Assembly: GCA_963575745.1 (NCBI GenBank)
Contig: CAUYUJ010000083.1
Location: 1-64,000 of the forward strand
From: Prorocentrum cordatum
Taxonomy: Eukaryota
DNA length: 64,000 bases
Direction: 5' to 3'
Shown here: piece after piece, positions 6,646-63,054 of the stretch
How positions within the stretch are numbered: position 1 is the first letter of the stretch
Layout: each line of letters starts with the position of its first letter
The notes under the pieces: model-generated
Told to the model about the DNA's origin: nothing
Seen by the model: the letters and a program-made list of their open reading frames with translations, nothing else
The model's database searches: none
Position numbers and translations under genes: made by a program

Positions 6646-6682
<37 letters not shown>

Positions 6683-22813: not shown

Positions 22814-22913
22814 NNNNNNNNNNNNNNNNNNNNNNNNNNNNNNNNNNNNNNNNNNNNNNNNNNNNNNNNNNNNNNNNNNNNNNNNNNNNNNNNNNNNNNN
22901 NNNNNNNNNNNNN
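22814..22913. other. Assembly gap (100 N)
   Basis: Run of N. It hides the 5' end of the YR element. Confidence 1.
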
Positions 22914-41790: not shown

Positions 41791-41978
41791 CGCGAAGCCG
41801 CTGACGTGCGCGGCGTGCAAAGGCGCGTTCTCGGACACGAAACATTTGAAGCAGAAACAAGTGGAACATCATCGAGCGGCGAAAGGAGCTAAAGTGGTGT
41901 ACAGAAGCTGCGAGGAACTCGGGTTCACAGCGCGCAGTTGCCAGGCTTATCAGTGCAGCGGCGCGTGCAAGAGAGGAC
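41789..41978 (+). pseudogene. Cys-rich zinc-finger-like ORF, 5' half, interrupted by the Copia element (3' half 58320-58402)
   Basis: Removing the element and one TSD restores ...YQCSGACKRG|LPKSAFPDPHNLPRDAKKGTLKCKTCK*. Confidence 0.65.
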
Positions 41979-42263
41979 ACTTTAAACGGAGAAGGTTAAA
42001 GGCGAGGTATAAATCGAGCATGTACCGCTGCCGTGCCTGGCTCAAGCCGGGCCCGGCCAAATATATGACTGTGCCTCACCGAGGCGCACGACTGGTATCT
42101 GAGATCGGAAAATACCTTTTCCATTGAAGATGCCCCTTCTATCCTTTACTCCAGATCCCATGCTTCGTCTCGCTCTCTTGCTCATGCGATATGAGCCAAA
42201 GCCTGGGATATGGCAACGCTTGAAGCGTAACACATACCTAAGCTTACCAGCATGTTTTCGACT
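41979..42263 (+). repeat. 5' LTR (285 bp)
   Basis: Matches 58030-58314 except for 2 substitutions. Confidence 0.97.
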
Positions 42264-44106
42264 TGGTAGCGGAGCTGGCTACACTCTCGTGTGGCTGGCT
42301 CTCGCTCTGATTCCTGTAATCCACGGCACAACTTGGTGGACTACTACTACGGTGGAATACCATGTTGCGCCGGCTCTGCGAGGAGCGGAGCCAGTCCGCG
42401 ATCGAGCTAGCGGGGCAACCCGCGAACTCGAGACGCTCTCTCCTACTTCACTGCGCTACTTCACTCTCGACTTCCACCAGATGCCAATCGGCAACTCGAT
42501 CGAGAACGTGGTCACCCTGCGGGGCTACCCGCAGCGGGGCCACCTGCATCCCGTGCCAGTCAGGCGCCTCACGGCTACTACGCCAGAGCCTGACAAACCA
42601 CAGCCTAAACCAATCACCGAAGCCGAAATGCACATGCACTGGATTAAGATAACTATCTTCGGCATTCTGTGGGTAATAATGGGATGTGCTGTGGGATACA
42701 TGCGGCAGGGGATGGACGACACGCGTACTACCGGCCCTTCGTGGGACCCTGCCGGTACTACGCCTTTTCGCGAATACGTTCGCGAAGTACATGCATGGAT
42801 AAACGTAACGAGCGGCAATATGACGCCACCTCAACAAGCTGCAGCACTACAACGAGGCCTTCAAGGTCTTGCTCGTCGTATCGCCATGCAGGTCCCCTCC
42901 CAGATCATCAATTATGGTGTAACTGTCAATGGACAGCCAACGGATGCAGTTACTTATATACTGTACCTATTGAGCACCAAATTTGAAAATCTGGAAGATG
43001 AGCGCCAGCTCAACTCTGGCACTGCCCTTATCGACTTTCGCGTCGAAAGGGGCGAGCGAATCGACTCAGTGTTAGCTCGATTCGAGATGGCCCGTGACGA
43101 GGCTAACTCTGTTGGCTTTGTCATCCCCAACTTTCAGATCCTAACGCTGATCCTTTTCAGAGCGTTAGGCGTTGGCGCGTCACGAGCCCAACACCTGCTG
43201 GAGCCCTTTAATCATCAGATGCCCAGAACACAAGCAGACTATGACAGGCTGCTGACCAGGATGAGGAACTACGGACATGTTGCCGAGCGCTCTCCTGGCA
43301 ACATTGCGGGTATCTTCACAGGGCACCACTCACATGCAGGTGTCTACGCCACGACTGCGGGGTCACCCGCTGGTCCTGGCGAGCCAAGTCCCTGGGCTGA
43401 CCCAGCCGATATGCCCAACGAGGCCACTGCCTTCTTAGGGCAGACCGGCCAGGCATCGGCAGAGGCAGCTGAGGCGAACGCCTGGTCGAACTACTCGCCA
43501 GGCGCCGCCTACACTGCAAGCCCGCCCTCGGGCACAACCCTCTGGGGCCAAGCGGAGTCATCCGCTCAAGGGTCTCAGCCACCCTCACCGTTTGAATCTG
43601 GCACTGACACAGATACCTCATCTGACGATGAGCACAATGGCATAGTCTCTGCTGGTAATGACTATCCAGCGGATGACACTCACCTTTCTGAACAACAAAG
43701 AGCGGAAGCCGCTTTTATGGCTTATCGCAAATCAAAACGCCGTTGGAGGCGCTTTATGAAGAAACCAGTCAGAAAAGTGAGACGTGCAGTACGCCGACAT
43801 TTCAAACGATATGGAAAGGGTCGTGGCAAAGGGGGTCGCAGACGCCGTATGCATGGTAGGGGTATTACTGCTTTCCTCACGTCCTTAACTGATATAGTTT
43901 TTGAAGAAGTTCTTATCGGAGGCAAAGGTCGGGGTCACAGGCGGACCTCTGGTAAGGGAAAAGGGCGGAGGGGCAACCCTAGGGGCGCTTCTGGCAATAC
44001 TATGAAGTGTCATACATGCGGTAGCACAGAGCATTTGCGCGATCAATGCCCGAAATGGGAAAGGAAAGGGATCCGTACATTTGGCTCAGAACTCTTTTAT
44101 GGATGA
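42130..44106 (+). CDS. gag: Gag (hydrophobic N-terminal segments, capsid-like core, CCHC knuckle)
   Basis: PSWDP..F..Y..W core, basic GKG tracts and CHTCGSTEHLRDQC. Continues into the next frame via a +1 indel near 44053. True start uncertain. Confidence 0.85.
   Translation: MPLLSFTPDPMLRLALLLMRYEPKPGIWQRLKRNTYLSLPACFRLGSGAGYTLVWLALALIPVIHGTTWWTTTTVEYHVAPALRGAEPVRDRASGATRELETLSPTSLRYFTLDFHQMPIGNSIENVVTLRGYPQRGHLHPVPVRRLTATTPEPDKPQPKPITEAEMHMHWIKITIFGILWVIMGCAVGYMRQGMDDTRTTGPSWDPAGTTPFREYVREVHAWINVTSGNMTPPQQAAALQRGLQGLARRIAMQVPSQIINYGVTVNGQPTDAVTYILYLLSTKFENLEDERQLNSGTALIDFRVERGERIDSVLARFEMARDEANSVGFVIPNFQILTLILFRALGVGASRAQHLLEPFNHQMPRTQADYDRLLTRMRNYGHVAERSPGNIAGIFTGHHSHAGVYATTAGSPAGPGEPSPWADPADMPNEATAFLGQTGQASAEAAEANAWSNYSPGAAYTASPPSGTTLWGQAESSAQGSQPPSPFESGTDTDTSSDDEHNGIVSAGNDYPADDTHLSEQQRAEAAFMAYRKSKRRWRRFMKKPVRKVRRAVRRHFKRYGKGRGKGGRRRRMHGRGITAFLTSLTDIVFEEVLIGGKGRGHRRTSGKGKGRRGNPRGASGNTMKCHTCGSTEHLRDQCPKWERKGIRTFGSELFYG
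42264..42278 (+). promoter_or_regulatory. Primer-binding site TGGTAGCGGAGCTGG, initiator tRNA-Met type
   Basis: Directly abuts the 5' LTR. TGGTAGC is complementary to the ...GCUACCA 3' end typical of eukaryotic tRNA-iMet. Confidence 0.8.
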
Positions 44107-47086
44107 CATAGACTACATTGACTACGAGTTTTACGTCAATCCAGAAGCGGCTCCCGCCGCGGGCTCCTCCACGTATTACGTGATGGCCCGCTACGCTGAA
44201 GTGACCGTAGCCCTGGAAGACTACGCGGTGACCCTCTTCGACGAGTTCCACGGCTGGGACGAAGTCGACGAGGTCGCGTTCAATGCCTGGTTCGGTCTTC
44301 CAGCGGGGCCACCCGCCGACGACGAGATCTCCGATGCTGAGACCGTCCCGGCGACCGAGGAAGAGCTCGCCGCCGCGCTGGCACCGCAGGTGATTGGCAT
44401 GCCGTTGCTGCCAGATCTTCCGCGAGCTGGCTCGGAAGCGGGAGACGCTGATGACGAAATGCGGGGCCATCCCGCGTATTCTGACTCCGAAGAGGCCGAA
44501 GAGGACTATAAGGACATGCTCCAAGAGCAGGTCGCAGAAGCAATCCGGCTCCTGAGTGCGCCAGCACATCAGCAGATAACCATGAACGACCTGCTGTCGC
44601 GCCCAGGGGCCGCAAGGCTGCGTCCATACCTGGATTCGGACATGTCGGCACCTCAGATGCTGACAGCACTCCAGGCTCTAGCGGGGTCACCCGCCGAAGA
44701 GACGCCAGCCGCAGCAGCGGGGCCACCCGCTTGGTCTATGGATGTATTCATGCAGGGCTGCGACCAGATGGACCTCAACGACCTCGCGATGGAGCAGCTC
44801 AACGACATCGGGTACTTCCGAAGCCCGTATCAGCACGTATTCATGGTCCAGGACAGCTCAGAAGACTCGGAGGACATGCGCCATGCCAAGAGGGACAGAC
44901 GACCATCGCCTCCCCGAGACCCAGAGCATGACGATCAAAGGCCCATGGGACGTGGCAGTGCGTCAGCGGGGCCAGCCCGCAGAAGGAGCCGTTCAGCTCC
45001 ACGACGCCCTACACATGATGCATCGGGCTACCCGTACAGTACGGAGCACTCCGTAGGTGTATCCGCTCAGTACGTGCCGGAGTGGTACATCAATTGGTAC
45101 CCCGGCTACTCGATGGACGTGATCCGCCACTGGTATTCTAAGGAGTACTGCACCAAAAGGGACGAATCTGGCATGATAATACGTACCAAGGGTGGCAAGA
45201 CTAAAACGCCAGAGGCTTGGGACAAAAGGGCTAAGAAACAGGAGATAATCAACGATCGCAAGACATACAGGAAACAAGTATGTCAATGCGAGCCCTTCAA
45301 AGGTCACATGCGCAGCTGTCCAATGGACCGCCCCCCCAGGAGTCCTCATCACGGTGAGACCCCGTGGAATTGGTCTCATGGAGATGACGCTGGCAACGTC
45401 CATGATCCTAATAAGGAGGTCCCTGGAGGAGGAAAGCGCATCACTGAAGCCGATCGCGTCCCTATGACCGAGGAGGTTGCCAACACTGTCAGGGAAAATT
45501 GGGTACAGCTTCCCAATGACCATCGCCTCAAGGAATGGAACCGCCGATTCCATAAAGAGGCGGGGTCACCCGCAGAATCCAGCAAAGAGGCGGGGTCACC
45601 CGCAGAATCCAGCAAAGAAGCGGGGTCACCCGCAGACGCGGCGCCAGCCGCTGGGTCCGCGGACGAAGATTGGACAGCTGTTGCATCTGCTGCCGGATCC
45701 GCCGCCGGCACTGACCAAACCGAACTGAATGAAGAATGGGCGGCGGAAGACGGCTCAGAGAATCCATTCCCTGATGGGTGCGCCTGCTGGTACTACAGCT
45801 CCTCGGCGCAGAAGTGGTTTTGCACAAGGGTCATTCACCGCCACGAAAATGGCAAGTACAAGCTGGCCATAAAAGGCACTGCCGACATCGACCATATGAG
45901 GCAGATCATCCATGATCATGGCCAGCCAGAAGGCCCTCCTAAGGACCCTCCTGGTCCACAACCAGGTAAGGGCAGCAGACCACCTCCAAGACCTGAAGCC
46001 GACTACTCTTCTTCACCGACTCCTGCGAAGAGACACCCGTCCAAGAGCCCCGAAGACACACAGGGGCGTGCGAAGGCCAGAGGGATCGCCAAGAAGGGCA
46101 ACCCTGAGCAGGGAGAGCCTACCGGCCCGTCCGTGACGGAGAGGAGGAAGGCTTTTGCTGGACCATCGACCCCGATGCCACCGGCTGCCCAAGGCGATGT
46201 CAAGGGCGAAGTTCGCAATCAGCCTAAGGCAGCCTTCCGAGGTGACTGGACTCCAACTCTGCATCAGCCGCGCCTTGCACCACGACCAGGTTCGGCACGG
46301 ATGAAAGCACAGCCGAAGCCCGAAGCTGGGATGAGGTCGGTGCGGGCAGAAGCAGCCGCCAAAGCTAAGGAGGACAAGGGCTCTGCGGGGCCACCCGCTA
46401 AAGCGGCGCCAGCTGCAGCAGCGGGGACACCCGCAGAAAGCACTCTTTCAAGAGAAGAACGCTTCAGAGCCCTCAAAGAATTTGGCGACCGACAGAAACT
46501 AGCCGACGATGCAGTGGCTGACCAAGGTCACCCGCACCCTGGCGCGGAGTCATCCGCTGGAGCTGCCTCGTCAGCCGCAGGTTCTGCAGGGCCACCCGTT
46601 AAAGCGCCGCCAGCTGCATTAGCGGGGCCACCCGCGCGCTGGCAGCCAGTGATGTCTGTTCTTAGGAACATCCCTCTGGGAGCCATTGAATATTGGCAAG
46701 GCATTGAAGGCAAAGGCCCGAAGCGCACCATAAACCCACGAGTCACTCGAGACGATACAGATCGATACGAGGTCATTAATTGCCCTGATCGTCGTAACTT
46801 CGAGTGCCGCAACGACTGGGAACGTGAACAACAAGCCGTGGGAAATATGTTGCGAGACAGGCCGCCATTGCGCGTCGCGCAGCACAGGGCAGAGCTCATG
46901 AAGGTCATGGAGAGGTTCGGCATGGATCCGACTCTGCCGCGCGATGGGCAAATGACCAAGGTGTCAATATGGTTCTCTACAGCCCTACGCCATAGTCCGT
47001 ATTGGAAGGATGGATTCAGCCGACACTTCGAAATATTAGCACTTTCGATCCATACGATGGCTGGGTTGTTGTTGACGATTTGCTGA
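44081..47086 (+). CDS. Polyprotein part 2: low-complexity linker, Tudor/SH3-like domain (45767-45907), N-terminus of the Tpt1/KptA domain
   Basis: 1001-aa open frame with FPDG..WYYSSSAQKW..RV...ENGKYKL and SIWFSTALRH. Confidence 0.75.
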   Translation: MAQNSFMDDIDYIDYEFYVNPEAAPAAGSSTYYVMARYAEVTVALEDYAVTLFDEFHGWDEVDEVAFNAWFGLPAGPPADDEISDAETVPATEEELAAALAPQVIGMPLLPDLPRAGSEAGDADDEMRGHPAYSDSEEAEEDYKDMLQEQVAEAIRLLSAPAHQQITMNDLLSRPGAARLRPYLDSDMSAPQMLTALQALAGSPAEETPAAAAGPPAWSMDVFMQGCDQMDLNDLAMEQLNDIGYFRSPYQHVFMVQDSSEDSEDMRHAKRDRRPSPPRDPEHDDQRPMGRGSASAGPARRRSRSAPRRPTHDASGYPYSTEHSVGVSAQYVPEWYINWYPGYSMDVIRHWYSKEYCTKRDESGMIIRTKGGKTKTPEAWDKRAKKQEIINDRKTYRKQVCQCEPFKGHMRSCPMDRPPRSPHHGETPWNWSHGDDAGNVHDPNKEVPGGGKRITEADRVPMTEEVANTVRENWVQLPNDHRLKEWNRRFHKEAGSPAESSKEAGSPAESSKEAGSPADAAPAAGSADEDWTAVASAAGSAAGTDQTELNEEWAAEDGSENPFPDGCACWYYSSSAQKWFCTRVIHRHENGKYKLAIKGTADIDHMRQIIHDHGQPEGPPKDPPGPQPGKGSRPPPRPEADYSSSPTPAKRHPSKSPEDTQGRAKARGIAKKGNPEQGEPTGPSVTERRKAFAGPSTPMPPAAQGDVKGEVRNQPKAAFRGDWTPTLHQPRLAPRPGSARMKAQPKPEAGMRSVRAEAAAKAKEDKGSAGPPAKAAPAAAAGTPAESTLSREERFRALKEFGDRQKLADDAVADQGHPHPGAESSAGAASSAAGSAGPPVKAPPAALAGPPARWQPVMSVLRNIPLGAIEYWQGIEGKGPKRTINPRVTRDDTDRYEVINCPDRRNFECRNDWEREQQAVGNMLRDRPPLRVAQHRAELMKVMERFGMDPTLPRDGQMTKVSIWFSTALRHSPYWKDGFSRHFEILALSIHTMAGLLLTIC

Positions 47087-50000
47087 CAAACTGGACTGAA
47101 AATGATCAGTGGAAAGGCTATCGTGAAATGCACGAGGTGCTGATCAAGGGCAGGCCCCACACGTCATACGTGTATTGGGTGCTGCTAAACTGCTGTGAGA
47201 TGATTGACCATCACGGCATGCAGAAGGGCAGGCTCCAGATGAAGTGCGTTGATGACAGCATGCTGCTGCCTCCCAGGTTTCGACCAACGGCACGCAGGCC
47301 ACAGTACTTCATCAGAGCCACGAACGGCCACAGCAGTCCAGGCATCCACTGTCCCGAGTCGCTTTATAAGCCGATCACAACATGGATGAAAGAACCAGAC
47401 GACCCAGTATATTTCATCCACGGGACACAGTGGGAGTATGTCAAGGACATCCTTGCTAATGGCCTTTCATGCCTCGCACAGGACAACCCTAAAAGGAAGG
47501 GGGGGCGCCAATTTGTACACGGCTGCCCCTACCTCCCGGGCGACCCGAGGATTCAATCGGGCATCCGTCCTGACTCGGAGGTGCTCATATTCTGCAGCAT
47601 CAACAAGATGCTGTCCAGTGGCTTCTCCCTATGGAGGTCAGCAAATGACATCGTCATGACACGGGGCCACGACGGCCGTATACCGCCCGATCATATCCTC
47701 CAGATTGTGAGCATTGCGAAATATCGGGTCGGTGAAGCCTGGAGCAATCCGCTGGCGTATGACAAATCGCGGAGGCGGGGCCAACCCGCAGACAGGATTC
47801 GCACCGATGACTACCTGCCACTTAAACTATGTGACAAAACTCTGGGTGTAATGGAAGATCACGCCATGTACCTAAAGGGATGGTCTAAGACGGACGGTCG
47901 CCCATTCAACTTGATCATGACCGAGCAAGATGTTGCTCCACGACCGTACGACACACAGACGGTCCTCATGATAAATGCCCAGGAAGACGAGGTCATGCCT
48001 GAAGCGGGGCCACCCGCAGGTGCGGGGACACCCGCGGTAGACACCTCGGACGGTTCATGGCAACAAGTGGTCACACCAGTAGCAACGGTAGCATCTCCTT
48101 GGAGGCCGGATCAGCAGGCATGGGTCCAGGCCCTCAACAGCTACTTGACACCAGCCGACGTTTCTGGACTGACCGATCAGCTATATCGTGCTGACCCGTG
48201 GGCAGTGCATACAGGTATCCAAGACGCACAGCAGAGGAACCTGCGCACTCCTGCGGGGCCACCAGGCGTCCTAGGACCACAGCCACAACGCCCTCCGCAG
48301 CAGACGGGAGGTGCGAGGTTTGTCCCTATGGGCGGCTCAGATGGTGGCTCGCCGTTTCGGACTCCGCCGTCTGAAACGAGCGAGAACAGCTTGTGGCAAA
48401 GACTCCAGGCGATTCGCGGGAATCCGGCACTCGCAGCAGCACTCCAAGCAACCACTCCCTTTGGCACTCCGAGGGGTAGTGAAGGAGGAGTGGCTGCGGG
48501 GTCACCCGCCGAGCGAACGCCTGCGGAGCCACCCGCTCAAGCGGGGCCACCCGCTGACGGACAGCAAGGTTCAGACTACGAACGTCGGGCAGCCAACTTA
48601 AGAGCACAGGCTACTTTTCTGCAGCAACAAGCTGATAGAGTGCCCAGCCTGTTGCGGAACCGCAACATAGATGTTACGAATCATGGCGACTTTCGGCCTC
48701 TCTGGAGCTGGACTTCTGAAGATGCTCCAAATGCTGATCCCACGAATCCATATCGACAGGTGTTTATTCCAGGAATAGCATCACACCCGATATATGGATG
48801 GGACAATCACGGTCCAGCAGAGGCACAGGCCATGGACGCGCCGATGTACCCGGAGTACTACGCGCAGATGAATAACACTCCTATGATTGCGGGGCCACCT
48901 GCGAACGAATACACTCGGAATCTAGCCAATGAGATGTTTCGTTTGCAGTTTACACGAGCGGTCGATGCGCAGTCTATGCCGCACTACGCCTACATGCCCA
49001 CGCCGACGGACCCCGAGACCGTAGTTCAGCCAGCTGGTCTCGCGGTGCCAGCCGCTATGGGCAACGTGCCAGACTACATCCGCGACGTGCACAACACGCA
49101 GCAAGCGATACTGGCATCCAGGCAGCAGGCTCGGGACAACACCAGGCTGCGCCAACGACGCGCGATCCAGAGAAGGATTGAGCGTGAGACCCAAGCGGGG
49201 GCACCCGCAGAAGCGGGGCCACCCGCTGAACGGCCAGACAGACGGCCGCCACCGACGCCATATCGGGAGGGCGAAACCACTTTCGAGCGCCAAGCTCGGA
49301 CTCGCCCTGACGTGCCTGCTCCAGTCATTTCAGACTACAACTTCACACAGTGTCCAATCTGCATGGACAACTACGAGATGGGCACTACAGTGTGGAGACT
49401 GGCGTGTGGGCACTTCTTTCACGATATATGCTGGGATCGTGTTGCACAGCAGCACGTCCGCAATCAGCGGCCAGGTGCGCCGAATGAGGCCCCCTGCGCT
49501 GTATGTCGTGGGCCGGGCATAGTTATAGCGCACTTCCCGTGTGCTGGACAGCGCGACGCTGAATCAGAACAAGCGCGCCAGCAGGAAAGGTACGTGGCAG
49601 ATGCCCGGGAAATGCGTCGGCTACGTGAAGCAGTGGAGGCACTGGAGGCTCGAGCCGCACAATCGGCGGAGCCATCCGCACGTGCCCCAGCTGCACAGGC
49701 ATGCCCCTGGCCAGCGCCAGAGCAAGGCATTCAGATGCCAATCCTGCCTACGCTTCGAGCGCAGGAGCCCCCAGCTGCGGGGCCACCCGCTGAAGCGGCT
49801 CCCGCCGCACAAGCGGGGCCACCCGCAAATGGACCTCCAAATCCAGGTTTCCTGAGGGCAATGGAGGCCAACATCAGGCGGAGTGGCAGGAGCGGAGGCG
49901 GGACTCGAAGGCCAACTGGATCAACCAGGACCTCGCGAGTGGCAAGCCCGGTCAGCGCCAGGAGCCGGGCAAGCGCTGAGAGCGCAGAGGCAGCCCAGTT

Positions 50001-51312
50001 CCATACTACATTCATGATCGATACAGAGGGGCTGACCTACGCACGTGACGACACGGACACGCTGCCACCAGGAGGTGAATGGATGTCTACGCTATCTGCG
50101 AATTATTGGGTCCTTGAGCAGGAACCAATTACCGTGGAGGAGCGCCGCCAGTATGAGCAGATGTGGTGCACCGAGCTGACCATGAGTCAATGGGTTCTTG
50201 AACAGCGCCTGTTGAAGGGTACACTCGGATCGCAAATCACGTACCACACCAATGACCATGGGACAATCGCTCTGGCAGCGCGCAATGGGACATTCTTTCC
50301 CGACGAAGATGGTATGCCCTGCACCTCGTTCATGCTAGACATTGGTTCCAATGTGAACATCATTGGATCCAATACGGCGCGAACCTTCCAGGAGATTATG
50401 GCCAGGTGCAATTACCGACCTGCCATATGCACCCTGAGCAAGACCCTCTACATCAATGGTGTTGGTGAGGGCGCTGCGATATGTCGGAAGATGGGCAACT
50501 TCAAGATCGGGGTACAATATGCCAATGAGGCGAGCCCCCGTATTGAGGAGTATGCCTCCAACATTGCAGAAGGCTCGGGTGCTAATCTCCCGGCCATCTG
50601 GGGCCTAGGAGCCATGGAAGCACGTGATACGATCATCGTGCTGAAGCCAGGCTACCAGAAGGTTATCTTCCCCAGCGGTGACTACACCCTGAAGCTGGGA
50701 AGAGGCGCCAAGGTCCTGAAGGCGAAGAAAACTCCCTCGGGACATCTCGCGATTCCCTGCGGTTTGTATGACGGGGCTAAAAGCCAGACGGTCACGAACA
50801 CCTTCACAATCCGCAGTAGTCGAGATGGCTATACCGAGACGGAGAACGAAGAGGACCCCGTCAGTGCGGGGACACCCGCCGAAGCAACAGCGGGGCCACC
50901 CGCGACGGGACAGTCCACGACCGTCACGACCGATACGTACATTGTCGAGCCGTACATCGACAAGCAGCTCCTGGAAGACACGACCCGTTTGATCGTGGAC
51001 AGGACGCTGAACAGCTGGTGGGAGGGCCAACAGTGTCCCGAAGGGACCTGGCCACATATGAAGGATGCTCTGAAGTCTAAGATATTCTGGGCAGTCCAGG
51101 AGGCGGTGAATAAATGGACACCTGAGGACCAAGCGGGGCCACCCGCGTCACCGCCACCACCACCAAGCTACACGGGCGGAGGTTCGTCGGACTCTGCGGG
51201 GCCAACCCGCGTGGAGATCGCGAGCGTAGCCACACCAGCGACTCCTGCGGAGCCATCCGCTAACAGCATGCCTCCGAGTCAGACGGCAACGTGGTCACAC
51301 GACCGCCGCTGA
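47002..51312 (+). CDS. Polyprotein part 3: Tpt1/KptA-like 2'-phosphotransferase, RING-H2 finger, aspartic protease
   Basis: DGWV, KGRL, IRATNGHS, HGT, GLS, SGIR and SANDIVMT. CPIC..CGHFFHDIC..CAVC (49351-49506). MLDIGS..AIWGL (50330-50610). Confidence 0.85.
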   Translation: MEGWIQPTLRNISTFDPYDGWVVVDDLLTNWTENDQWKGYREMHEVLIKGRPHTSYVYWVLLNCCEMIDHHGMQKGRLQMKCVDDSMLLPPRFRPTARRPQYFIRATNGHSSPGIHCPESLYKPITTWMKEPDDPVYFIHGTQWEYVKDILANGLSCLAQDNPKRKGGRQFVHGCPYLPGDPRIQSGIRPDSEVLIFCSINKMLSSGFSLWRSANDIVMTRGHDGRIPPDHILQIVSIAKYRVGEAWSNPLAYDKSRRRGQPADRIRTDDYLPLKLCDKTLGVMEDHAMYLKGWSKTDGRPFNLIMTEQDVAPRPYDTQTVLMINAQEDEVMPEAGPPAGAGTPAVDTSDGSWQQVVTPVATVASPWRPDQQAWVQALNSYLTPADVSGLTDQLYRADPWAVHTGIQDAQQRNLRTPAGPPGVLGPQPQRPPQQTGGARFVPMGGSDGGSPFRTPPSETSENSLWQRLQAIRGNPALAAALQATTPFGTPRGSEGGVAAGSPAERTPAEPPAQAGPPADGQQGSDYERRAANLRAQATFLQQQADRVPSLLRNRNIDVTNHGDFRPLWSWTSEDAPNADPTNPYRQVFIPGIASHPIYGWDNHGPAEAQAMDAPMYPEYYAQMNNTPMIAGPPANEYTRNLANEMFRLQFTRAVDAQSMPHYAYMPTPTDPETVVQPAGLAVPAAMGNVPDYIRDVHNTQQAILASRQQARDNTRLRQRRAIQRRIERETQAGAPAEAGPPAERPDRRPPPTPYREGETTFERQARTRPDVPAPVISDYNFTQCPICMDNYEMGTTVWRLACGHFFHDICWDRVAQQHVRNQRPGAPNEAPCAVCRGPGIVIAHFPCAGQRDAESEQARQQERYVADAREMRRLREAVEALEARAAQSAEPSARAPAAQACPWPAPEQGIQMPILPTLRAQEPPAAGPPAEAAPAAQAGPPANGPPNPGFLRAMEANIRRSGRSGGGTRRPTGSTRTSRVASPVSARSRASAESAEAAQFHTTFMIDTEGLTYARDDTDTLPPGGEWMSTLSANYWVLEQEPITVEERRQYEQMWCTELTMSQWVLEQRLLKGTLGSQITYHTNDHGTIALAARNGTFFPDEDGMPCTSFMLDIGSNVNIIGSNTARTFQEIMARCNYRPAICTLSKTLYINGVGEGAAICRKMGNFKIGVQYANEASPRIEEYASNIAEGSGANLPAIWGLGAMEARDTIIVLKPGYQKVIFPSGDYTLKLGRGAKVLKAKKTPSGHLAIPCGLYDGAKSQTVTNTFTIRSSRDGYTETENEEDPVSAGTPAEATAGPPATGQSTTVTTDTYIVEPYIDKQLLEDTTRLIVDRTLNSWWEGQQCPEGTWPHMKDALKSKIFWAVQEAVNKWTPEDQAGPPASPPPPPSYTGGGSSDSAGPTRVEIASVATPATPAEPSANSMPPSQTATWSHDRR

Positions 51313-52293
51313 CGGGGGCAGGCGGGCGCGCCGGCGGCGCTCGCTTGCGAAGAGAAGCCGAATGCCGGCCTCCTCGCTACATACGTTGGCCGCGCTGAGG
51401 CCCGAGAGGAAAAATATCATTCAAAATGTCTTGTCATCGAAGATATTCGCACAGCTTGCGCTGAACTCCGAATCCGTGGATATATATGCGACCGGATTAC
51501 CCATAATGAGGTAATGACTTCAACTGGAACACAGTATTTGGGAAATTTGTTGGCAGGAGACTACAATATGTTGTGGGTGGCCACACCCTCTGATTGGTAC
51601 GTTCGTACTCCAGGAAAGAGGGCGGGACCACACTATCAACGTATACAAAATCTCCTGATCAAAGCGCGTGCTCTGAGAATGCAGATTGTTATCCTGGGGC
51701 CACCCGGGTATTTCTGGAAACAGGGTCCGATCAAAGATGTTATCGAAGATTTGAAGCTAAGCATTATACGAATGAGACTCTGTCATTTCGGTATCAAGTT
51801 TGACCGCTCCAGTAAATATCCCAGTGGTTCTTATATACAAGTTGCTACATCTTGTCCTCATATACCGATAAACTTATGGAGATGTACTTGTGGCTCACAC
51901 AAAGAGCATGATTTGGATTGGTATGGCCAAGATCAGCAACGTGCCGAGTTCCGGCATAAAACCTTGGCTATCATCACAGCACGCTTCCTTGATCAACTCA
52001 ATAAAGCCAACGTGATTAGGAATGAGCGGAGTGCGGTGCACCTCAGTGTGTGTACGCGCGTTGACAAAAAGGAAAGACACTACGTTCAATGTCCACAAAA
52101 GGGCCCTCAATGGGACCATGTTGTTCGTAGAGTCACGACCGACCTGGACACGTATAAGATCGTTCAAGATATCAAAATCCAGGATCAGCCGACTGGGTAC
52201 AACTATGTAGCTCCATTACCTGATGGGGTTACAAACATCAGTACTCGGTTTATACTGGGAGCCTCCGGCTCCAGTTCTTCACGGCGATGGTGA
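51313..52293 (+). CDS. In-frame continuation after a single TGA: degenerate methyltransferase-like domain
   Basis: Same frame as 47002-51312 with no further stop. LWVATP / VILGPPGYFW / RLCHFGI / RCTC..H parallel the motifs of the domain at 52769. Confidence 0.6.
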   Translation, partial: RGQAGAPAALACEEKPNAGLLATYVGRAEAREEKYHSKCLVIEDIRTACAELRIRGYICDRITHNEVMTSTGTQYLGNLLAGDYNMLWVATPSDWYVRTPGKRAGPHYQRIQNLLIKARALRMQIVILGPPGYFWKQGPIKDVIEDLKLSIIRMRLCHFGIKFDRSSKYPSGSYIQVATSCPHIPINLWRCTCGSHKEHDLDWYGQDQQRAEFRHKTLAIITARFLDQLNKANVIRNERSAVHLSVCTRVDKKERHYVQCPQKGPQWDHVVRRVTTDLDTYKIVQDIKIQDQPTGYNYVAPLPDGVTNISTRFILGASGSSSSRRW

Positions 52294-55200
52294 GTCGCGA
52301 AGGCCACGCCCAAAGCGTGTGACGATCGTCGACGACGATCGGTCTCCTCCCCCTTCGATTGAGCGCTGCCAAACGCGACCCACCAACTTTCCTGAAATTC
52401 CGCCATTTCCTGACTTAACAGCGGACCCTTCCGCAGCGGATCCCTCCGCAGCGGATCTCTCCGCGGAAACTGCGCTGCCCACTGATGCCAGGATAAAACA
52501 GAAAGAAAAGCAGAAAGCTGACAAAGAAGCCGGCATCAAACCGAAGAAAATCCCGAAGAAAGTGGAAGACGGTAACGACGACTGTGGAGAGGACCTCAAA
52601 GGGCTTGACTGCTCCACATATTTCAACGACGTTCCTCTTGACGACTCGGACTCGGACAGCGAATCAGAGGACATCTTCATGATGTTACCGGCGGGGCAAC
52701 CCGCTGACTCACATGTTGATGTCTTCTCGATGGTCCAGTCACTATGCTACGGCAGAAACAATCAAGTGGACATGCTTGAATTATGTGGGGGCAAGGGTGG
52801 TATATCCATATTAGCCTTCAAGAGAGGACTCTCGTCGGGCGGGAACCTTGATAAGATATCAATGGTTGACCTTGGAAACGCAGAAGTACAAAGGGCGGTC
52901 CTTCACTACCTCAAGACTTGCTTTGTCAAGATCACGATTCTGCAGCCAAGCTGCAGAACTACTGGACTTCCTTCATACTTCAATGCGCAGGTCAATCATG
53001 ACACGTGGCTTAAACACCACAAGGAGGACCTGCCCCATATCACGTTCTGTGGAACAGTCGCTCTATTGCAAGACGACCTAAGACGTTTCTTTCTCAGGGA
53101 ACAACCAATGGGCACGTGGGTGGATGAGATCCAGCCATGGAAGGAACTGGCACGACGCAAGGTCACTTGCCAAACGATTATTGATCAGTGCACGACTGGT
53201 CTCAAAGATTCGTTTGGACAATACATCCGCAAGCCAACACAGATGATGGCAAACAAAGAAGAGTTGTTGGCACCCTTCAGAGGCAAGCGTTGTCCAGGTA
53301 ATCATGTGCACGCCAATGCTTGCAACAAAGAACTAGCAAGGGCGGCACAGTATACCTACAGAATGCAGTCATTGATCGTCGATGCGGTGCAAACCGCCAA
53401 AGATCTGTTTGCTTACGGTCGCGATCCATTCGCGAATCGCGAACGCAGTTATGCGTTCGTAACAAACAGTGCTGGCTACGACTTGGACGACCCAACAATC
53501 CGGAGACACCCAAACGGAGAAATCTGGCGACCACCACCTGGCGGTCTTGGGTGCCCTGGCTGTGTGGACAACAACTACAAGCAATCACCAAAGCACAGCA
53601 GGGATCCGAAGATGTGTCGGTGGTATGATGTTGAACCATACTACTGGGACTGTCCAAGCTGTAAGAAGGAATATCAGAAGAGTAATCCTCACCACACCAA
53701 GATATCTGGCCAATGCAGATTCGCCGAAAAATGGAAGCTGCCAGATAACTTTGGGCAGCCGCGCCCGGCGGGGCAAGCCGCTCCTGCGGCGCCAGCCGCG
53801 GAAGCGGCTCCAGCCGCAGAAGCGGCGCCAGCCGCAAAAGCGGCGCCGGCCGCGAGAGCGCGCATACGCGCGCCTAGGCCGCCACGGCCCGGTGAGGGCG
53901 ATCCAACCGCAGGCGCCAGCAGCCATGACATCACCAGAGCCGAAGGGGCTAATAGTAGCAACACTGGCGCTGGCAGCTCTGACGATCACCGTAGACTGCC
54001 GCAAGTGGCAGCAAGGCGCGGACGCATGGAAGGAGGTGATCCTCCACCGCCGCCGCAGCCTCCTGTAGAGCCGAGGCCAAGGCCAAGGCTTCCTGATTGG
54101 ACTCGTTTCGATGTTCAGCTCAGCCTTCAAAACCTGCGCAGCTTTGACCCAGCTGTAGTGCAGCGAGAACTCCGCAAGCTTCACTTGAGATGGTTTCATG
54201 CCAAGGAACCAAAGATGCGGATGATTCTAGCTAAGGTCGGTTTGGGCGAAACCCGTTTGAGTCTGATTAAGGGCATTTGCGACTCGTGTAGAGAATGTCG
54301 CGCCTGGGACAAACCAGGCAACACGGTGATGCCATCTGTGTCACTGCCAGGACATTTCAACGAGGAAGTCGAATGTGATCTTTTCTTTTACAAACAGGAA
54401 CATATTGTTTTTCACATCATCGACCGTTGTATTCGTTGGGCAGCTGGTACAGAGATCCCCGATAAGACTATGCACACTGTTCTTGATGCCTATCACACAA
54501 CTTGGATGCAGCATGGCCCTGCCAAAGTCTTATACTCCGACGGGGAAGGAGCACTGAATAACGATACAGCAAAGGCCATCCTTAAATCCAAGGGAACGGA
54601 GCTTCGTATCCGAGCGCGTGGCCAACACGCCACGACTATCGAAGCTAGGAACGGCATCCTGCGACACCTCATACACGTGATGGGAGAAGAATTGAATAGA
54701 TTGAATATTCCTCTGAATTTCACTCGTCTTTTACATGAAGCCATGTTTGCCAGCAATGCATTTACCTTCTACAACGGAGCTTCTCCGTATAATGCGTTAT
54801 ATGGCAGACCACCAGCTATGCTTCCCGATTTCCTTGTCTTGGATCATGATCAATCCGCTGAATCATCAGATCACTCAAGGGAGGAGACAATCAGGAGGGT
54901 TAGTCTGGAGGCAATCACGCAGGCCACTGCGGTTGCCAAGACAAACAGGGCTCTTCGTACGAAGACCGCTGCTACGGGTGAATTTCACTACAGAGAGGGA
55001 GATCTCGTGGACTATCATCGCCCGACCACCACGAAAGATGACTGGGGTGGATGGAGTGGTCCATACCCGGTCATCCGCAATGAACCTGACCGAAGCCAGG
55101 TTATCGTGAAGGTCGGTAGTCGCGAAGTGCGAGTACAATATCCTGACACAAGACACACGCTGTACATCGAAGCACTTATGGTCCGCGAGATAGGATCGGA

Positions 55201-57925
55201 CAATACGGCCCTTCGGACAGTATTGGCCTTTATTGCCGGTCTGCCAGCGGGGAAACCCGCCATGACTTTCGGATATCTACCAGCGAAACAGGGCCGGCTG
55301 CAGATGACTGCTGCGAGCCGGCTTTCGCCTAAGGTGCACTTGGCTCTTCAGTACCTCATACGCAACTACTTTCGTATTGAAAACGTTGTTGCTGTACGAC
55401 TTGCCAAGAGCCTGACGAAGTTGCCTGCTGCACCCTATGCAGACAGCTGTACACTAGTGCACTATGATAATGATGTGACCCCTGGCTTTCATTACTATGA
55501 AGCTGATGGCACTGCCTTGAACATCTACGACATCACAGGATCTACACACTCACGCATCATCCAGTGTCTTAAATCCAAGAAGCCGCCTGCTGGATTTGAC
55601 CGAGACCTCACTAAGTTTGAGGAACTCGCTGATGGTCCACCACCAAGCGAGTCACCTCCAGCAGCTGCTCCTGAGCAGCCTCCTGCGGAGAACGATGGTC
55701 GGCTCCCGACCATCATAGAGGAAACAGAAGAAGATCTGGATGCCTTTGTCTTGAAGTCGTGGTATGCTGAACTGATGGATGACAGAACACTCCTTGAAGC
55801 TGACACAGAAGAAGTCATGCATACAGTTCCCACATACATGACAGACACACAGTGTGTGTTAGTCTCTACGACCTGTGAAGATGTGCAAGGCCACTTGCCG
55901 GAGCGGGGTCACCCGCCAGGATACGACATGGACACTTCTTACTACGTTCCTTTATGCTCCACGGATCCGGACAGCAAATATGATCTGGACTCCGATGAGC
56001 ACGGGAAGTACATCGAGCTCTGCTTCACAGCAGACATGTCCAAAGTCGTCCTGTCCGAGCAGCAACGCCGATTGTTGAATGACAGCAGCGTCACAACTAT
56101 GCGAGTATACGTTAGTGCTGCTTCCAAACGTGCCGTGGTCGTCAAGGAAGACGATCTACTCACGAAGGCCGACATTCAAGCGAATCCGGTCAAAGTTTCC
56201 AAAGCCCTGTACACAGAATTGAAGACTTGGCTTGACAACAAATGCTTCCAGATGACTGACTTGAGCAAAGCGTCTAACATCATGACTTCACGCTACGTAT
56301 ACAAATGGAAGTTTGTCAAGAACGAAAAGGGCGAAATGGAAAGGACGATCAGGTTACGCTTGGTACTCCGTGGCTTCATGGACCTTGAAGCCTTTGATGT
56401 CGAAACCTTCTCTGGCACGGCAAGGAGGTCAAGCCAGAGACTGCTCGCAAGTTCTGCTGCATGCAACAAAGCTTGGATCATCGCTTCCCTGGACATCAAC
56501 ATGGCTTTCTTGAAGGGACTGACCTATAGCGAGCTCGCCGCGGCAACGGGCGAGAAAGAGCGTGTGGTGTGCTTCGCACTACCTCCTGGGTCAGCAGCTG
56601 TCCTTCGCACACTGCCAGGCTTTGAGTCATATGACGAATCAAAGCATTGTCTTCGGTGTCTGAAGCCGGGGGCGGGCACGAAGGATGCTCCCAGGGCATT
56701 CTCGTTGAAGCTCAGGTCCATCACTAGGAGCTTTGGGCTACAGCCTACTTCATACGACAAAGAGTTCGAGATGAGCCCAAACCTCTTGACAGCCAAACAC
56801 GTTGATGACATCAATATGACTGGGAAGGAAGATGCTATTGACAAGTATGTCAAATGTGTTGAAGATACGTTTGGAAAGTGCAAACTGAACAAGCACACAT
56901 ACACAAACTGTGCCGTTCGGTACAACAAGACCGATGATGGGAGCGTCACTCTTGATCAGGACGAATACATCAAACAGCTTCGTCCTATCACACATCCAGA
57001 ACTCACAGGAGCTGATCCTGAGAGCAAAGCGACAAAGACGATTTCTGATATGTTCGTCAGTCTTCGTGGCGCTCTAGCCTATGCGTTGATCACGCAGGTA
57101 TGGCTGATGGTCTATGTTGTCTCACTACAACGTATCCAGGAACCGACAAACATCCAGGTACGACGACTAAACGCGGTTACCAGGAAACTACAGGCAGGTC
57201 CGAAGAAGATCGTGTATCAAGCTATGACCCCAACAGGAGAAGTCGACCTGCATAGCGATTCTGGCTATCGTCGTCTCAACGGAGATGAAGACGACGAAGT
57301 CAAAGGCTATGGTATCCGCGGGGCTAACCTGCTGAGGCGTGGCCACACGCAAGCGGGGAAACCCGTCGTGCACCTGGTGGACGCATACTGCAAGTCTCAT
57401 CGACTGCAGGTGCGTTCGAGCTACTCTGCGGAAACACTGGCAGCAGCCCACAACTTGGAAGACTGCTACCCGACCATTGTAACGCTCCACGAGCTACACT
57501 CGGGACCATTGACCCCCACACAGTTAAAGAACATATTGGAAATGGGTGGTCTATGTATCAAAGTCACTCTGACTATTGATGCCGAGTCTGTCTTCAAGTC
57601 TTTGTCTAGCAAAGATCTGAAGAAGCCCACAGAATGTACTCTGCTTGGGCACATTAGCTGGATCCGCCAGATGATGGAGCGCGGAATCGTTGAAAGCGTT
57701 CAATGGTGTGACACGCGGGATATGACTGCCGATGGTCATACCAAAGGTAGTATTGACCGCGCGTTGCTCCTACAAGTAATGGCCGGCCAGCAATCCTTCA
57801 AGCACGAGCTGAAGAAACATACTCCGTATAGGGCGGGCAGGTCGTCTCAGGACGGCCCTGCCTCCCGAGCTAGCGGGGAAACCCGCATGCAGGTGCGCTC
57901 TAGTAGCGAGGAAACTCGCCGGTAG
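52223..57925 (+). CDS. pol: Pol: C5-methyltransferase-like domain, two CCHC-type fingers, integrase, RT, RNase H
   Basis: ELCGGKGG, QPSC and FLREQP. HLRWFH..CREC, ECDLFF, SDGEG and IEARNG. YVYKWK..RLVLRGF, DINMAFL, GTKDAPRAF and HVDD. HSDSG, SAETLA, IDAES and ADGHTK. Confidence 0.93.
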   Translation: MGLQTSVLGLYWEPPAPVLHGDGESRRPRPKRVTIVDDDRSPPPSIERCQTRPTNFPEIPPFPDLTADPSAADPSAADLSAETALPTDARIKQKEKQKADKEAGIKPKKIPKKVEDGNDDCGEDLKGLDCSTYFNDVPLDDSDSDSESEDIFMMLPAGQPADSHVDVFSMVQSLCYGRNNQVDMLELCGGKGGISILAFKRGLSSGGNLDKISMVDLGNAEVQRAVLHYLKTCFVKITILQPSCRTTGLPSYFNAQVNHDTWLKHHKEDLPHITFCGTVALLQDDLRRFFLREQPMGTWVDEIQPWKELARRKVTCQTIIDQCTTGLKDSFGQYIRKPTQMMANKEELLAPFRGKRCPGNHVHANACNKELARAAQYTYRMQSLIVDAVQTAKDLFAYGRDPFANRERSYAFVTNSAGYDLDDPTIRRHPNGEIWRPPPGGLGCPGCVDNNYKQSPKHSRDPKMCRWYDVEPYYWDCPSCKKEYQKSNPHHTKISGQCRFAEKWKLPDNFGQPRPAGQAAPAAPAAEAAPAAEAAPAAKAAPAARARIRAPRPPRPGEGDPTAGASSHDITRAEGANSSNTGAGSSDDHRRLPQVAARRGRMEGGDPPPPPQPPVEPRPRPRLPDWTRFDVQLSLQNLRSFDPAVVQRELRKLHLRWFHAKEPKMRMILAKVGLGETRLSLIKGICDSCRECRAWDKPGNTVMPSVSLPGHFNEEVECDLFFYKQEHIVFHIIDRCIRWAAGTEIPDKTMHTVLDAYHTTWMQHGPAKVLYSDGEGALNNDTAKAILKSKGTELRIRARGQHATTIEARNGILRHLIHVMGEELNRLNIPLNFTRLLHEAMFASNAFTFYNGASPYNALYGRPPAMLPDFLVLDHDQSAESSDHSREETIRRVSLEAITQATAVAKTNRALRTKTAATGEFHYREGDLVDYHRPTTTKDDWGGWSGPYPVIRNEPDRSQVIVKVGSREVRVQYPDTRHTLYIEALMVREIGSDNTALRTVLAFIAGLPAGKPAMTFGYLPAKQGRLQMTAASRLSPKVHLALQYLIRNYFRIENVVAVRLAKSLTKLPAAPYADSCTLVHYDNDVTPGFHYYEADGTALNIYDITGSTHSRIIQCLKSKKPPAGFDRDLTKFEELADGPPPSESPPAAAPEQPPAENDGRLPTIIEETEEDLDAFVLKSWYAELMDDRTLLEADTEEVMHTVPTYMTDTQCVLVSTTCEDVQGHLPERGHPPGYDMDTSYYVPLCSTDPDSKYDLDSDEHGKYIELCFTADMSKVVLSEQQRRLLNDSSVTTMRVYVSAASKRAVVVKEDDLLTKADIQANPVKVSKALYTELKTWLDNKCFQMTDLSKASNIMTSRYVYKWKFVKNEKGEMERTIRLRLVLRGFMDLEAFDVETFSGTARRSSQRLLASSAACNKAWIIASLDINMAFLKGLTYSELAAATGEKERVVCFALPPGSAAVLRTLPGFESYDESKHCLRCLKPGAGTKDAPRAFSLKLRSITRSFGLQPTSYDKEFEMSPNLLTAKHVDDINMTGKEDAIDKYVKCVEDTFGKCKLNKHTYTNCAVRYNKTDDGSVTLDQDEYIKQLRPITHPELTGADPESKATKTISDMFVSLRGALAYALITQVWLMVYVVSLQRIQEPTNIQVRRLNAVTRKLQAGPKKIVYQAMTPTGEVDLHSDSGYRRLNGDEDDEVKGYGIRGANLLRRGHTQAGKPVVHLVDAYCKSHRLQVRSSYSAETLAAAHNLEDCYPTIVTLHELHSGPLTPTQLKNILEMGGLCIKVTLTIDAESVFKSLSSKDLKKPTECTLLGHISWIRQMMERGIVESVQWCDTRDMTADGHTKGSIDRALLLQVMAGQQSFKHELKKHTPYRAGRSSQDGPASRASGETRMQVRSSSEETRR

Positions 57926-58029
57926 CGAGGCTACTCGCGCGCCCTTGCCTTGTAGGCGGCCGCTGCTGCTTAGCACTGTTTTTCCGCGTAATGTAGAAGT
58001 GCGGTGCCTGCTCGTCTCCTCCCCCTCCG

Positions 58030-58314
58030 ACTTTAAACGGAGAAGGTTAAAGGCGAGGTATAAATCGAGCATGTACCGCTGCCGTGCCTGGCTCAAGCCG
58101 GGCCCGGCCAAATATATGACTGTGCCTCACCGAGGCGCACGACTGGTATTTGAGATCGGAAAATACCTTTTCCATTGAAGATGCCCCTTCTATCCTTTAC
58201 TCCAGATCCCATGCTTCGTCTCGCTCTCTTGCTCATGCGATATGAGCCAAAGCCTGGGATATGGCAACGCTTGAAGCGTAACACATACCTAAGCTTACCA
58301 GCGTGTTTTCGACT
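58030..58314 (+). repeat. 3' LTR (285 bp)
   Basis: Matches the 5' LTR and is followed by TSD AGGAC. Confidence 0.97.
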
Positions 58315-58639
58315 AGGACTACCAAAGTCGGCGTTCCCCGACCCGCACAATCTCCCGCGCGACGCAAAGAAGGGCACCCTAAAGTGCAAGACGTGCAAAT
58401 GATGCCCAATCGGTTGCGCGTACTAGGCAGAAAAGGGAGGACGGGAAGAGGAGGATGGGGGGTGAGGCGGAAAATGGGGGGGAGAAGCATCGGTGAGGAT
58501 GAGCTGAAGCGGGGCAGGAAGAGGAGGAGGGGAACGAGGAGGAAGTGTAGGAGGAGGAGGAGGAGGAAGAGGAGGAGGAGGGGGACACTGAGATGAGGCT
58601 CCGGGTTATGGGGTTGGGCGCGACTCGAAAGACCGGTGT

Positions 58640-61600: not shown

Positions 61601-62805
61601 CGATGCACCAAGAGGCCCCAGAAAGTCCCAGGAGGGTCCGAGGAACCGCCCAGGAAGGCCCCAAGACGGGCCAAGACGGACCCAGCACAACCCAAGGCGC
61701 GCTGCGACGGCTCAAGACGGCTCCAAGACAGCCCCAAGAGGGTGCCAACACGGCCCCTGCTGGGCCCAGGACGGCCCAAGGAGGCGCACAGGAGGGGCCC
61801 AAGACGACTCCAAGGCGGCCTCCTCACGGTCCCAGACGGCTCCAAGACAGCCCCACGAGGACCCCGATGGGCCCAGGACGGCCTACGGACACGCCCATGA
61901 GGGGCCCACGACGAACCAAGACGGCCCCATCAGGGCAAACGGCGCCCTCAAGACGGGCCTAGACGGCTCCAAGACGGCCCTTTGAGGGAGCCAACGCGGC
62001 GCGGGACGCCAACCCTGGGGCCCGTGGGCCCCGCGCCGCTTGGGCAGAAGACGAACGCCAGGTCTGACAGGCCAGCTACCGCCCCCCTTTGCCCGATATG
62101 CTGTGCCATTCTGTTCCCCCAGGGGCCTTGGCAAACTCTTCGGGCCAAGCAGACCGGACCCCTGGGACAGCAGCCAATTGATATGACCCTGGGACCTCTC
62201 CGCATTCTTCGGACGAGCATCTGGGGGGCCCAGGAGATTCGGACATGTCTTCCCCATTCCTTGCCCTGTCCCGTTCTGTTCGCCCGAAGGCCTCCACAGA
62301 CCCTCTGGGCGAACAGAATGGGACATGGCGAACAAACCCTCCCGTTGGCGGTGATGCGACTGGATCGCACCATCAAGGCGCGCCCGGAGGTGATGGCCGA
62401 CCCAACAGCGGTTTCTCTTAAGAGTTCACTGGATTTCAAATTTTCTTGAAGCTCTCTTGGGCCCTCCCTGTAGATCCTTGCGAGCCTCCCCGGCGCTTTC
62501 GGTGGCTTTCCCCGATGGCCTCCCGAGCCCTTCCCCGAGCGCTCCTGAGACGCCTCAGATGGGCTTCGACTTCGACGCACATCCCCGAGAGACTTCGAAA
62601 CTGTCCTCAATAGGAGGGGGGTGAACGAGCAGTGCGCTGGGCCAAGCTGCTGCAGCGCTGCAAGAGCTCGGACACGAAGGCGCGGTCTCGCTGCCGCCGC
62701 CCGAGCCGCCGCCGTGTTTGTAGATTTTCGGTACAATCTGCGCCGTTCCTCCGAGAACCATTCCAGAAAGATGTCGTGGACGGAGTCCACGGGTCAGCCC
62801 TAGTC
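58640..62805. repeat. CCCAAGA satellite (inverted 58640-59370) with units X (59513-59860, 62443-62805) and Y (61972-62420)
   Basis: Near-identical to blocks in 37780-41345. Confidence 0.9.
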
Positions 62806-62910
62806 AGCTACAACGCTGGGACCAGCGCGTGCGAGAAGGGCGAGCAGTGGCAGCGGGCTTTGGCGCTGCTCCGCGAGATGCGCGAGGAGAAGCTGGAGCC
62901 CGACGCCATC
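62806..62910 (+). CDS. Single PPR repeat fragment (SYNAGTSACEKGEQWQRALALLREMREEKLEPDAI)
   Basis: Canonical 35-aa PPR motif, similar to 32962-33270. Confidence 0.8.
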
Positions 62911-62969
62911 ACCCCCGTGGGGTCGAGGAGGAGGAGGAGGGCGAGGAGTGCGAGGGCGAGGGCGAGGGG

Positions 62970-62975
62970 GACGAC

Positions 62976-63054
<79 letters not shown>

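Follow-up and report, generated by a model that had tools for sequence, protein, structure and literature searches.

The window analysed here, a 64,000-nucleotide stretch of DNA from Prorocentrum cordatum, a GC-rich eukaryotic host, contains a young Ty1/copia-like element of 16.3 kb that occupies positions 41979-58314 on the + strand (Table 1). Two long terminal repeats (LTRs) of 285 bp, a 5-bp target duplication, and a primer-binding word after the 5' LTR are all present, as in Ty1/copia. The LTR pair was delimited by blastn; an ungapped repeat search returned 288 nt for the same pair, three bases too long relative to the 285 nt of the blastn alignment. In a contig of run X4, which comes from another sample, window positions 41944-41973 are joined directly to 58315 onward: 151 loose letters precede 58315 in that contig, and the last 30 of them are window 41944-41973. 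Because this empty target site was found in another sample, both ends of the element are fixed to the base and the insertion is polymorphic. The boundary at 58030 is backed by three independent lines, namely the LTR pair, the AGGAC at both ends, and the empty site.

Table 1. Features of the copia-like element and of its two candidate plus-strand priming regions in the window.
Feature	Position	Strand	Basis or remark
Left target-site duplication, AGGAC, 5 bp	41974..41978	.	Flank reading and empty-site contig
5' LTR, 285 bp, start ACTTT, end CGACT	41979..42263	+	blastn against 58030-58314, 285 nt, 99.3% identity
gag-like ORF, 667 aa, weak zinc knuckle	42103..44106	+	zf-CCHC E 0.0014, below the Pfam cut-off
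Primer-binding-site word TGGTAGCGGAGC	42264..42275	+	Adjoins the 5' LTR; TGG start
Extra ORF, 1438 aa: Tpt1/KptA RNA 2'-phosphotransferase domain, RING finger, conserved C-terminal part	46996..51312	+	PF01885 E 2.6e-15; RING families E 1e-7
pol ORF P0001, 1904 aa: integrase-like region, RVT_2 reverse transcriptase, presumed RNase H	52211..57925	+	RVT_2 (PF07727), aa 1343-1602, E 1.5e-10, 41.5 bits against a cut-off of 31.6
Small hairpin ATCGTC-GAC-GACGAT before the central tract	52325..52339	+	4-bp core ends 20 nt before the central cut
Central junction-word copy GTCTCCTCCCCCTTCG↓ATT, inside the pol ORF, coding for SPPPSI	52342..52360	+	Proposed cut (↓) after 52357
Small hairpin GCGG-TGC-CTGC	58001..58011	+	Weak; spacing to the cut 18 nt, against 20 nt in the family register
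Tract paired with the LTR start (hairpin of the initial annotation)	58011..58057	+	Minimum-free-energy fold in the window; not conserved as a structure
Pure pyrimidine run of 14 nt plus G	58015..58029	+	Would form the 3' part of the plus-strand primer, with the cut behind G58029
3' LTR, 285 bp, first base 58030	58030..58314	+	blastn pair, AGGAC flank, empty site
Right target-site duplication, AGGAC	58315..58319	.	Flank reading and empty-site contig

The TG...CA ends expected of Ty1/copia LTRs are not found in the window, where the LTRs run from ACTTT to CGACT, nor in its relatives, where they run from A(C/G)T to ACT. These A(C/G)T...ACT ends are retained beside the target duplication when the element is integrated (window 41979-41983 and 58310-58314; related loci L004, L005, L013, L014, and L041). 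The primer-binding word would correspond to the 3' end of an initiator-type tRNA; no tRNA genes were found within the window. Of 80 related loci, 25 contain TGGTAGCGGAG, in most cases directly behind their LTR. The primer-binding site and the putative plus-strand priming site discussed below look alike, in that each primer ends in CC(A/G) and is followed by A(G/C)T.

The pol ORF encodes a reverse transcriptase of the RVT_2 type, as in Ty1/copia. RVT_2 was the only Pfam match in the window's pol, and it recurs at E <= 0.001 in all 13 family proteins that were scanned with Pfam. Plant copia proteins are merely 24-27% identical to the RT-to-end region of the element, which marks it as divergent. 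An integrase is less readily recognized: no match to rve was obtained in the window's pol even at E 5, one of the 13 relatives (P0028) has an rve match below the cut-off (aa 882-969, upstream of the RT), and precomputed annotation places rve on P0028 and P0033. Searches of the integrase and RNase H regions against the PDB, by sequence and by profile, returned no match, and the RNase H domain is presumed from its position together with a familiar motif. The gag-like ORF has tblastn matches in 18 related loci. Between gag and pol lies the extra ORF, whose RING and C-terminal parts recur in relatives of all three groups defined below (A, B, and C) and whose Tpt1 part recurs in L032 only; an RNA-repair-type enzyme of the Tpt1/KptA kind within a copia-like element is unusual. 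The long ORFs, the RVT_2 domain, and the primer-binding word all lie on the + strand, so the sequence before the 3' LTR really occupies the place in which a purine tract is expected.

Recent activity and abundance of the family are suggested by the 99.3% identity of the LTRs, the polymorphic insertion, and the thousands of family contigs in run X1 alone. Many contigs carry the order pol, junction, LTR, primer-binding site TGGTAGCGG, gag (L021 1111-1395; L032 727-1030 onward), and L024 and L035 have matching contig ends; such contigs represent one of three things, tandem elements, one-LTR circles, or the collapse of two LTRs during assembly. No further copies of the element occur in the window, and motif matches at 4612 and 13034 proved to be unrelated low-complexity repeats rather than other element copies. 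The element sits within a block of 1-3-kb repeats (36000-41900 and 59500-63000), the left ones of which recur on the right at 88-98% identity; these flanking repeats are rich in periodic repeats of 10-11 nt of the CCCAAGACGG type. The window also holds (CTC/GAG)n-type microsatellites, mostly on the minus strand (6099-6750, 11477-11741, 21145-21598, 22776-22813, and 32650-32699), and an assembly gap represented by a run of 100 N (22814-22913). Since the microsatellites give 108 matches in a loose pattern search, low-complexity matches to the tract described next must be discounted.

Immediately before the 3' LTR the element carries CTCGTCTCCTCCCCCTCCG (58011-58029), which contains CTCCCCCTC (58019-58027), the reverse complement of GAGGGGGAG. 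The initial annotation had drawn attention to this reverse complement of a typical polypurine tract (PPT) before the 3' LTR, and its reading of the sequence and position was accurate. No purine run abuts the 3' LTR in the window; the nearest is GTAGAAG, about 30 nt upstream.

Relatives were collected by a protein search with the RT-to-end region, which returned 52 proteins, nearly all from metagenome assemblies. An alignment of 29 of these proteins was used to fetch DNA from metagenome contigs; of 369 matching stretches, 105 could be confirmed, and 80 loci were retained. The 3' junction was placed in 45 of these, plus L066 and L068 by way of duplicates shared between their 3' and central sites; in the other 33, the contig ended early or the junction was unrecognised. 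The 45 loci fall into three groups according to their junction word and how closely their pol resembles that of the window, an informal arrangement and not a tree: group A (22 loci, 53-86% pol identity), group B (14 loci, 38-47%), and group C (9 loci, 33-38%). Counts for group A leave out L006 and L037, near-duplicates of L005 and L036, and refer to the 21 non-redundant sequences that remain. Loci of groups B and C include many JGI metagenome contigs, and one protein relative bears a eukprot label.

Within group A, positions -14 to -2 relative to the LTR start are pyrimidines in 21 of 21 sequences. The bases at the proposed cut are nearly as constant, with G at -1 in 19 of 21 (A in the other two), A at +1 in 20, and T at +3 in all 21. 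Further upstream (-45 to -32), the commonest base reaches a frequency of just 0.29-0.57 (n = 21), and the DNA beyond the junction is unalignable between most group A elements. These comparisons support the view that the pyrimidine tract is a conserved and selected feature of the family, placed exactly at the LTR start. Groups B and C have neither a purine nor a pyrimidine tract at this place: group B junctions read ...AACACACCCG↓ACT (ending ACACCCG↓ACT) and group C junctions ...CAACCG↓ACT or ...CAGCCG↓ACT. Despite their other upstream words, CCG↓ACT is common to the junctions of both groups. The placement was checked independently in a distant relative, L041, whose LTRs (2213-2343 and 11947-12077) are accompanied by a target duplication, GAGAT, and whose LTR starts with ACTCG immediately after ...GGGAAGTCAGCCG. 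Two loci at 32% identity, L061 (1519 and 4592) and L062 (1499 and 4572), have TGAACCTGTTGTT both in the 3' region and internally, possibly the mark of an LTR that starts with TG and of yet another non-purine primer word.

Two ways in which the window could have been exceptional were named at the outset. That other copies would have a normal purine tract here is contradicted by the relatives, none of whose placed junctions has one. That a local inversion or misassembly produced the tract finds no echo in four public runs, in which no joints indicative of an inversion or a skip occur over 57400-58700. In run X1, no variant at a frequency of at least 10% falls within 57989-58109 among those listed, against one per 10-40 nt in the flanks. 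All four runs are assembled contigs, and their breaks at 58030, like the X15 gap at 57935-58029, are uninformative on U3/R/U5 borders or DNA ends.

The junction word also occurs a second time, inside the pol ORF. The central copy and its 3' counterpart (58014-58032, GTCTCCTCCCCCTCCG↓ACT) are identical at 17 of 19 positions, and no other match with two or fewer mismatches exists in the 15.7 kb of internal sequence; 300 shuffled queries gave no match at all. A scan for pyrimidine runs plus GACT had first revealed a second site within the window's element and within several loci; each element's own junction word (-12 to +4) was then compared with its own internal sequence. Exact copies of the word (16 of 16) are present in six group C loci (L038, L041, L043, L044, L047, and L048) and copies with a single mismatch in two more (L042 and L049); none of 100 shuffled words does as well. 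Group B shows cores of 12-13 nt: L033 and L050 share the last 12 nt of the word, L022/L023 share it with a 1-nt indel, and in L035 both sites contain CCACACCCGACTT. The same kind of pair occurs in L066 and L068. Within group A, L003, L005, and L008 carry a pyrimidine tract ending in CCG↓A(C/T)T at the same relative place as the window's central copy; in L005 and L008 this tract (ending CCG↓ATT) differs from the element's own 3' word, with 12 and 11 of 19 positions matching without gaps. Overall, the words vary from element to element but match inside one element, although central copies are the best or equal-best match to their own 3' copy in only 8 of 12 cases.

Every central copy precedes the RT region by 3.4-3.95 kb, and the block of identity between 3' and central sites spans 8-16 nt before the cut and merely 3-8 nt after it. 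The peptides encoded by the central tracts of group A vary (SPPPS, SFSLP, TPPLP, and SLPLP), yet every codon is all-pyrimidine, so the constraint lies on the nucleotides. In addition to a central copy of the group B type, two group B loci (L028 1745-1761 and L035 109-125) have a run of pyrimidines followed by CCCG↓ACTTG some 2.2 kb before the RT region; this may be a third site, or else coding sequence rich in proline.

Through this combination of features, we propose that a divergent Ty1/copia-like lineage uses the tract as its plus-strand primer site, in the role of a polypurine tract but without purine richness, a reading to which we assign a probability of roughly 70%. It abuts the first base of the 3' LTR and has a second, central copy; what it lacks is purine richness on the sense strand. 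We read it as a primer site because the word sets the first base of the LTR and recurs mid-element, in the manner of a 3' PPT and a central PPT. The comparative analysis thus supports non-canonical plus-strand priming as the best reading. Mechanistically, the element's RT/RNase H would leave an RNA oligonucleotide ending ...CCUCCCCCUCCG-3' during minus-strand synthesis, with the cut falling between G58029 and A58030. The central copy would give a second initiation site, as do PPT2 of Ty1 and the central PPT of lentiviruses. Anatomy, conservation, and duplication can be read from the sequences; genomic RNA as the primer, RNase H as the cutting enzyme, and initiation at the central copy are inferred. 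The upstream word would be free to vary, from all C/U (group A, including the window) to A/C-rich (group B) or mixed (group C), with CCG↓ACU fixed. Because CCG↓ACU is constant, cut and primer appear to be chosen by the sequence around the scissile bond and not by the geometry of a purine-RNA/pyrimidine-DNA hybrid. One expectation counts against primer survival: an all-pyrimidine RNA on purine DNA should be a good RNase H substrate.

The initial annotation had favored a structural solution, in which the tract folds onto the purine-rich LTR start and the resulting hairpin, with the LTR boundary at its first loop base, directs the cut or the priming. In the window the pairings exist: CTCCG (58025-58029) with CGGAG (58038-58042) and CTCGTCT (58011-58017) with AGGCGAG (58051-58057) belong to the minimum-free-energy fold of 58005-58063, and 58030 is indeed the first base of an 8-nt loop. 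At -19.6 kcal/mol against a shuffle mean of -13.15 (z -2.21; 8 of 200 shuffles fold as well), the stability of this fold is modest, not striking. Most group A sequences can pair part of the tract with the G-rich LTR positions +8 to +18, and Sireviruses offer a precedent in the inverted repeat that is described as flanking their PPT and involving the U3 start (PMC2829016; PMC3601003). Conservation of the structure, however, is what the relatives fail to provide. RNAalifold gave no consensus structure for the junction over the 21 group A sequences, and the helix between tract and LTR start is only 58.7% paired, with no real compensatory change and with two of its nine pairs left open in 19 of the 21 sequences. 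Single-sequence folds also put the junction at different places: the loop starts at the LTR boundary in just 3 of 23 (the window, L009, and L046), a stem encloses the boundary in the closest relatives of the window (L001, L021, and L032), and some junctions barely fold (-0.4 to -5 kcal/mol in L020, L036, L037, L010, and L072). At the central copies the tract is kept, but its downstream partner is absent in three of four (L003 alone has one), and the identity between central and 3' copies stops 3-8 nt past the cut. Judging from the sequences, the purine-rich LTR start is better explained as one half of the terminal inverted repeat of the LTR, as in L014, where the LTR start AGTCGAAGGGTAG mirrors the LTR end CTACCTTCGACC; the hairpin in the window is probably a by-product of a C-rich word lying beside a G-rich LTR end. 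We regard direction by this hairpin as quite improbable. Of the original proposal of structure-directed, non-canonical priming, the non-canonical part survives, borne by the missing purine tract, the conserved tract, and the central duplicate; likewise, the suggested alignment of family junctions upheld the pyrimidine tract (21 of 21) and did not bring out hairpin covariation.

A different hairpin has a better claim to involvement. In a model compatible with the non-canonical primer and not exclusive of it, a small upstream hairpin (4-6 bp with a 3-nt loop) may stall the RT as it makes the minus strand; the RNase H site, which trails the polymerase site by a set distance, would then cut at G↓A, 20 nt downstream of the stem. 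The idea of pause-directed cutting draws on the behavior of HIV-1 RT. Of the 21 group A 3' copies, 13 have a 4-bp stem (3-nt loop) that stops exactly 20 nt short of the cut, and in two more the spacing is 21 nt; among offsets of 5-44 nt no other distance is found in more than three group A sequences. The stem covaries (GATC/GATC, TATC/GATA, and GAGG/CCTC), with 81.9% of pairs formed and four of five pairs changed on both sides, and it precedes the central copies of the window (as the core), L003, and L005 at the same distance, there with the new pairs CATC/GATG and CGTC/GACG. Such a ruler may contribute in most of group A; as the agent that positions the cut we consider it rather unlikely, since it is lacking from L001, L021, and L032 (the window's nearest relatives), from L009/L046, and from the L008 central copy; the 3' site of the window itself shows just a weak stem at 18 nt, and groups B and C are without it in this form. 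It is improbable, too, that the tract has another job altogether, as a site for a C-rich-RNA-binding or nucleocapsid protein or as a packaging or expression signal, with CCG↓ACU alone specifying priming and any RNA left there sufficing. Groups B and C, with quite different upstream words before the same CCG↓ACT, would fit this, as would L005 and L008, in which central and 3' tracts are alike in composition and not in word; yet the duplicated block of group C, exact within each element, reaches 12-15 nt upstream of the cut, which leads us to read the whole upstream word together with the cut, and the tract always ends at -2, without a spacer. Very improbable is a primer supplied from elsewhere, whether the first 10-20 nt of the LTR, purine-rich, retained as RNA and then copied (which would put the LTR start at the 5' end of the primer), a primer translocated from the LTR in a hepadnavirus-like manner, or a minus-strand fold-back. 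LTR positions +6 to +14 are purine-rich in group A, and the window LTR contains a partial look-alike of the tract (58212-58226), but the purine-rich stretch is not shared by the central copies and several LTR starts of groups B and C are not purine-rich. Nor was a second copy of the primer word, as in the DR1/DR2 arrangement of hepadnaviruses or the self-priming of Tf1, found inside the LTR of the 15 group A sequences in which the whole LTR is readable: as translocated primers, the LTR-internal look-alikes are no better than shuffles, which equal the best of them in 16 of 200 and 28 of 200 trials and that of the window in 38 of 200. Finally, a misassembly, local inversion, or private mutation of this copy is almost certainly not the cause, given the same tract in 22 independent metagenome loci, the absence of joints in the four public runs, and an element whose LTRs are 99.3% identical, whose target duplication is intact, and whose empty site is known.

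Taken as a whole, we give somewhat better than even odds to a scenario in which a marine-protist LTR lineage gave up the purine tract and uses an all-pyrimidine RNA primer at a 3' and a central site, chosen by CCG↓ACU and often aided by the hairpin ruler at 20 nt. The purine tract is treated as universal in retroviruses and LTR retrotransposons; annotation programs search by it, and structural work on primer selection by RT/RNase H rests on purine-RNA hybrids. If the scenario is true, the RNase H resistance of purine-rich hybrids is not universally required for the replication of LTR elements, and a family that pairs the full primer layout with a word made of pyrimidines alone would offer a natural way to test which features RT recognises. 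A pyrimidine primer word would also explain why such elements fail standard PPT annotation. In the literature searched, from which subscription journals and Repbase reports lay apart, we found no description of a pyrimidine or other non-purine plus-strand primer in an LTR element.

Several known systems share individual traits with the family. SmTCL of Symbiodinium microadriaticum, a Ty1-copia-like element of about 10 kb that is activated by heat, is likewise a Ty1/copia-like element of a marine protist (PMC5776459); the likeness is one of description, and the PPT figures in that account only as part of a generic scheme. LTR ends other than TG...CA are described for the Zam clade of Drosophila gypsy-like elements, where Zam runs from 5' AGTTA to TAACT 3' (PMC3601003), and an LTR start other than TG for tomato TARE1, whose LTRs start with TA (PMC3701649). 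Unlike the element in the window, Zam belongs to another superfamily and TARE1 to another host, and these accounts report nothing unusual about their plus-strand primers. In Sireviruses, which are plant Ty1/copia elements, the 3' LTR junction likewise carries non-coding motifs that are conserved, and an inverted repeat at a precise position, involving the U3 start, flanks their primer (PMC2829016; PMC3601003). They differ in having several purine tracts, with the PPT in a loop; in the window the primer would itself form the 5' arm, in a pairing that relatives do not conserve.

The closest parallel in layout is with elements that prime at two places. Ty1 has a 3' and a central site, PPT1 and PPT2 (PMC7197481; Heyman et al. 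1995, cited in PMC2829016), the Arabidopsis copia element EVADE has multiple central PPTs, and lentiviruses have a central PPT (PMC7197481). As in these, a short word abuts the 3' LTR, sets its first base, and is repeated once mid-element in pol-coding sequence, and the identity between 3' and central copies ends a few bases after the cut (PMC7197481). PPTs are described as lacking a consensus, and the all-purine rule as "not inviolable", with one pyrimidine in HIV-2 and in MPMV (PMC3185511). The tract in the window goes far beyond that single-pyrimidine departure: where Ty1, lentiviruses, and EVADE have purine runs, the last 15 nt before its 3' LTR comprise 14 pyrimidines and one purine, in what would here be the role of the primer.
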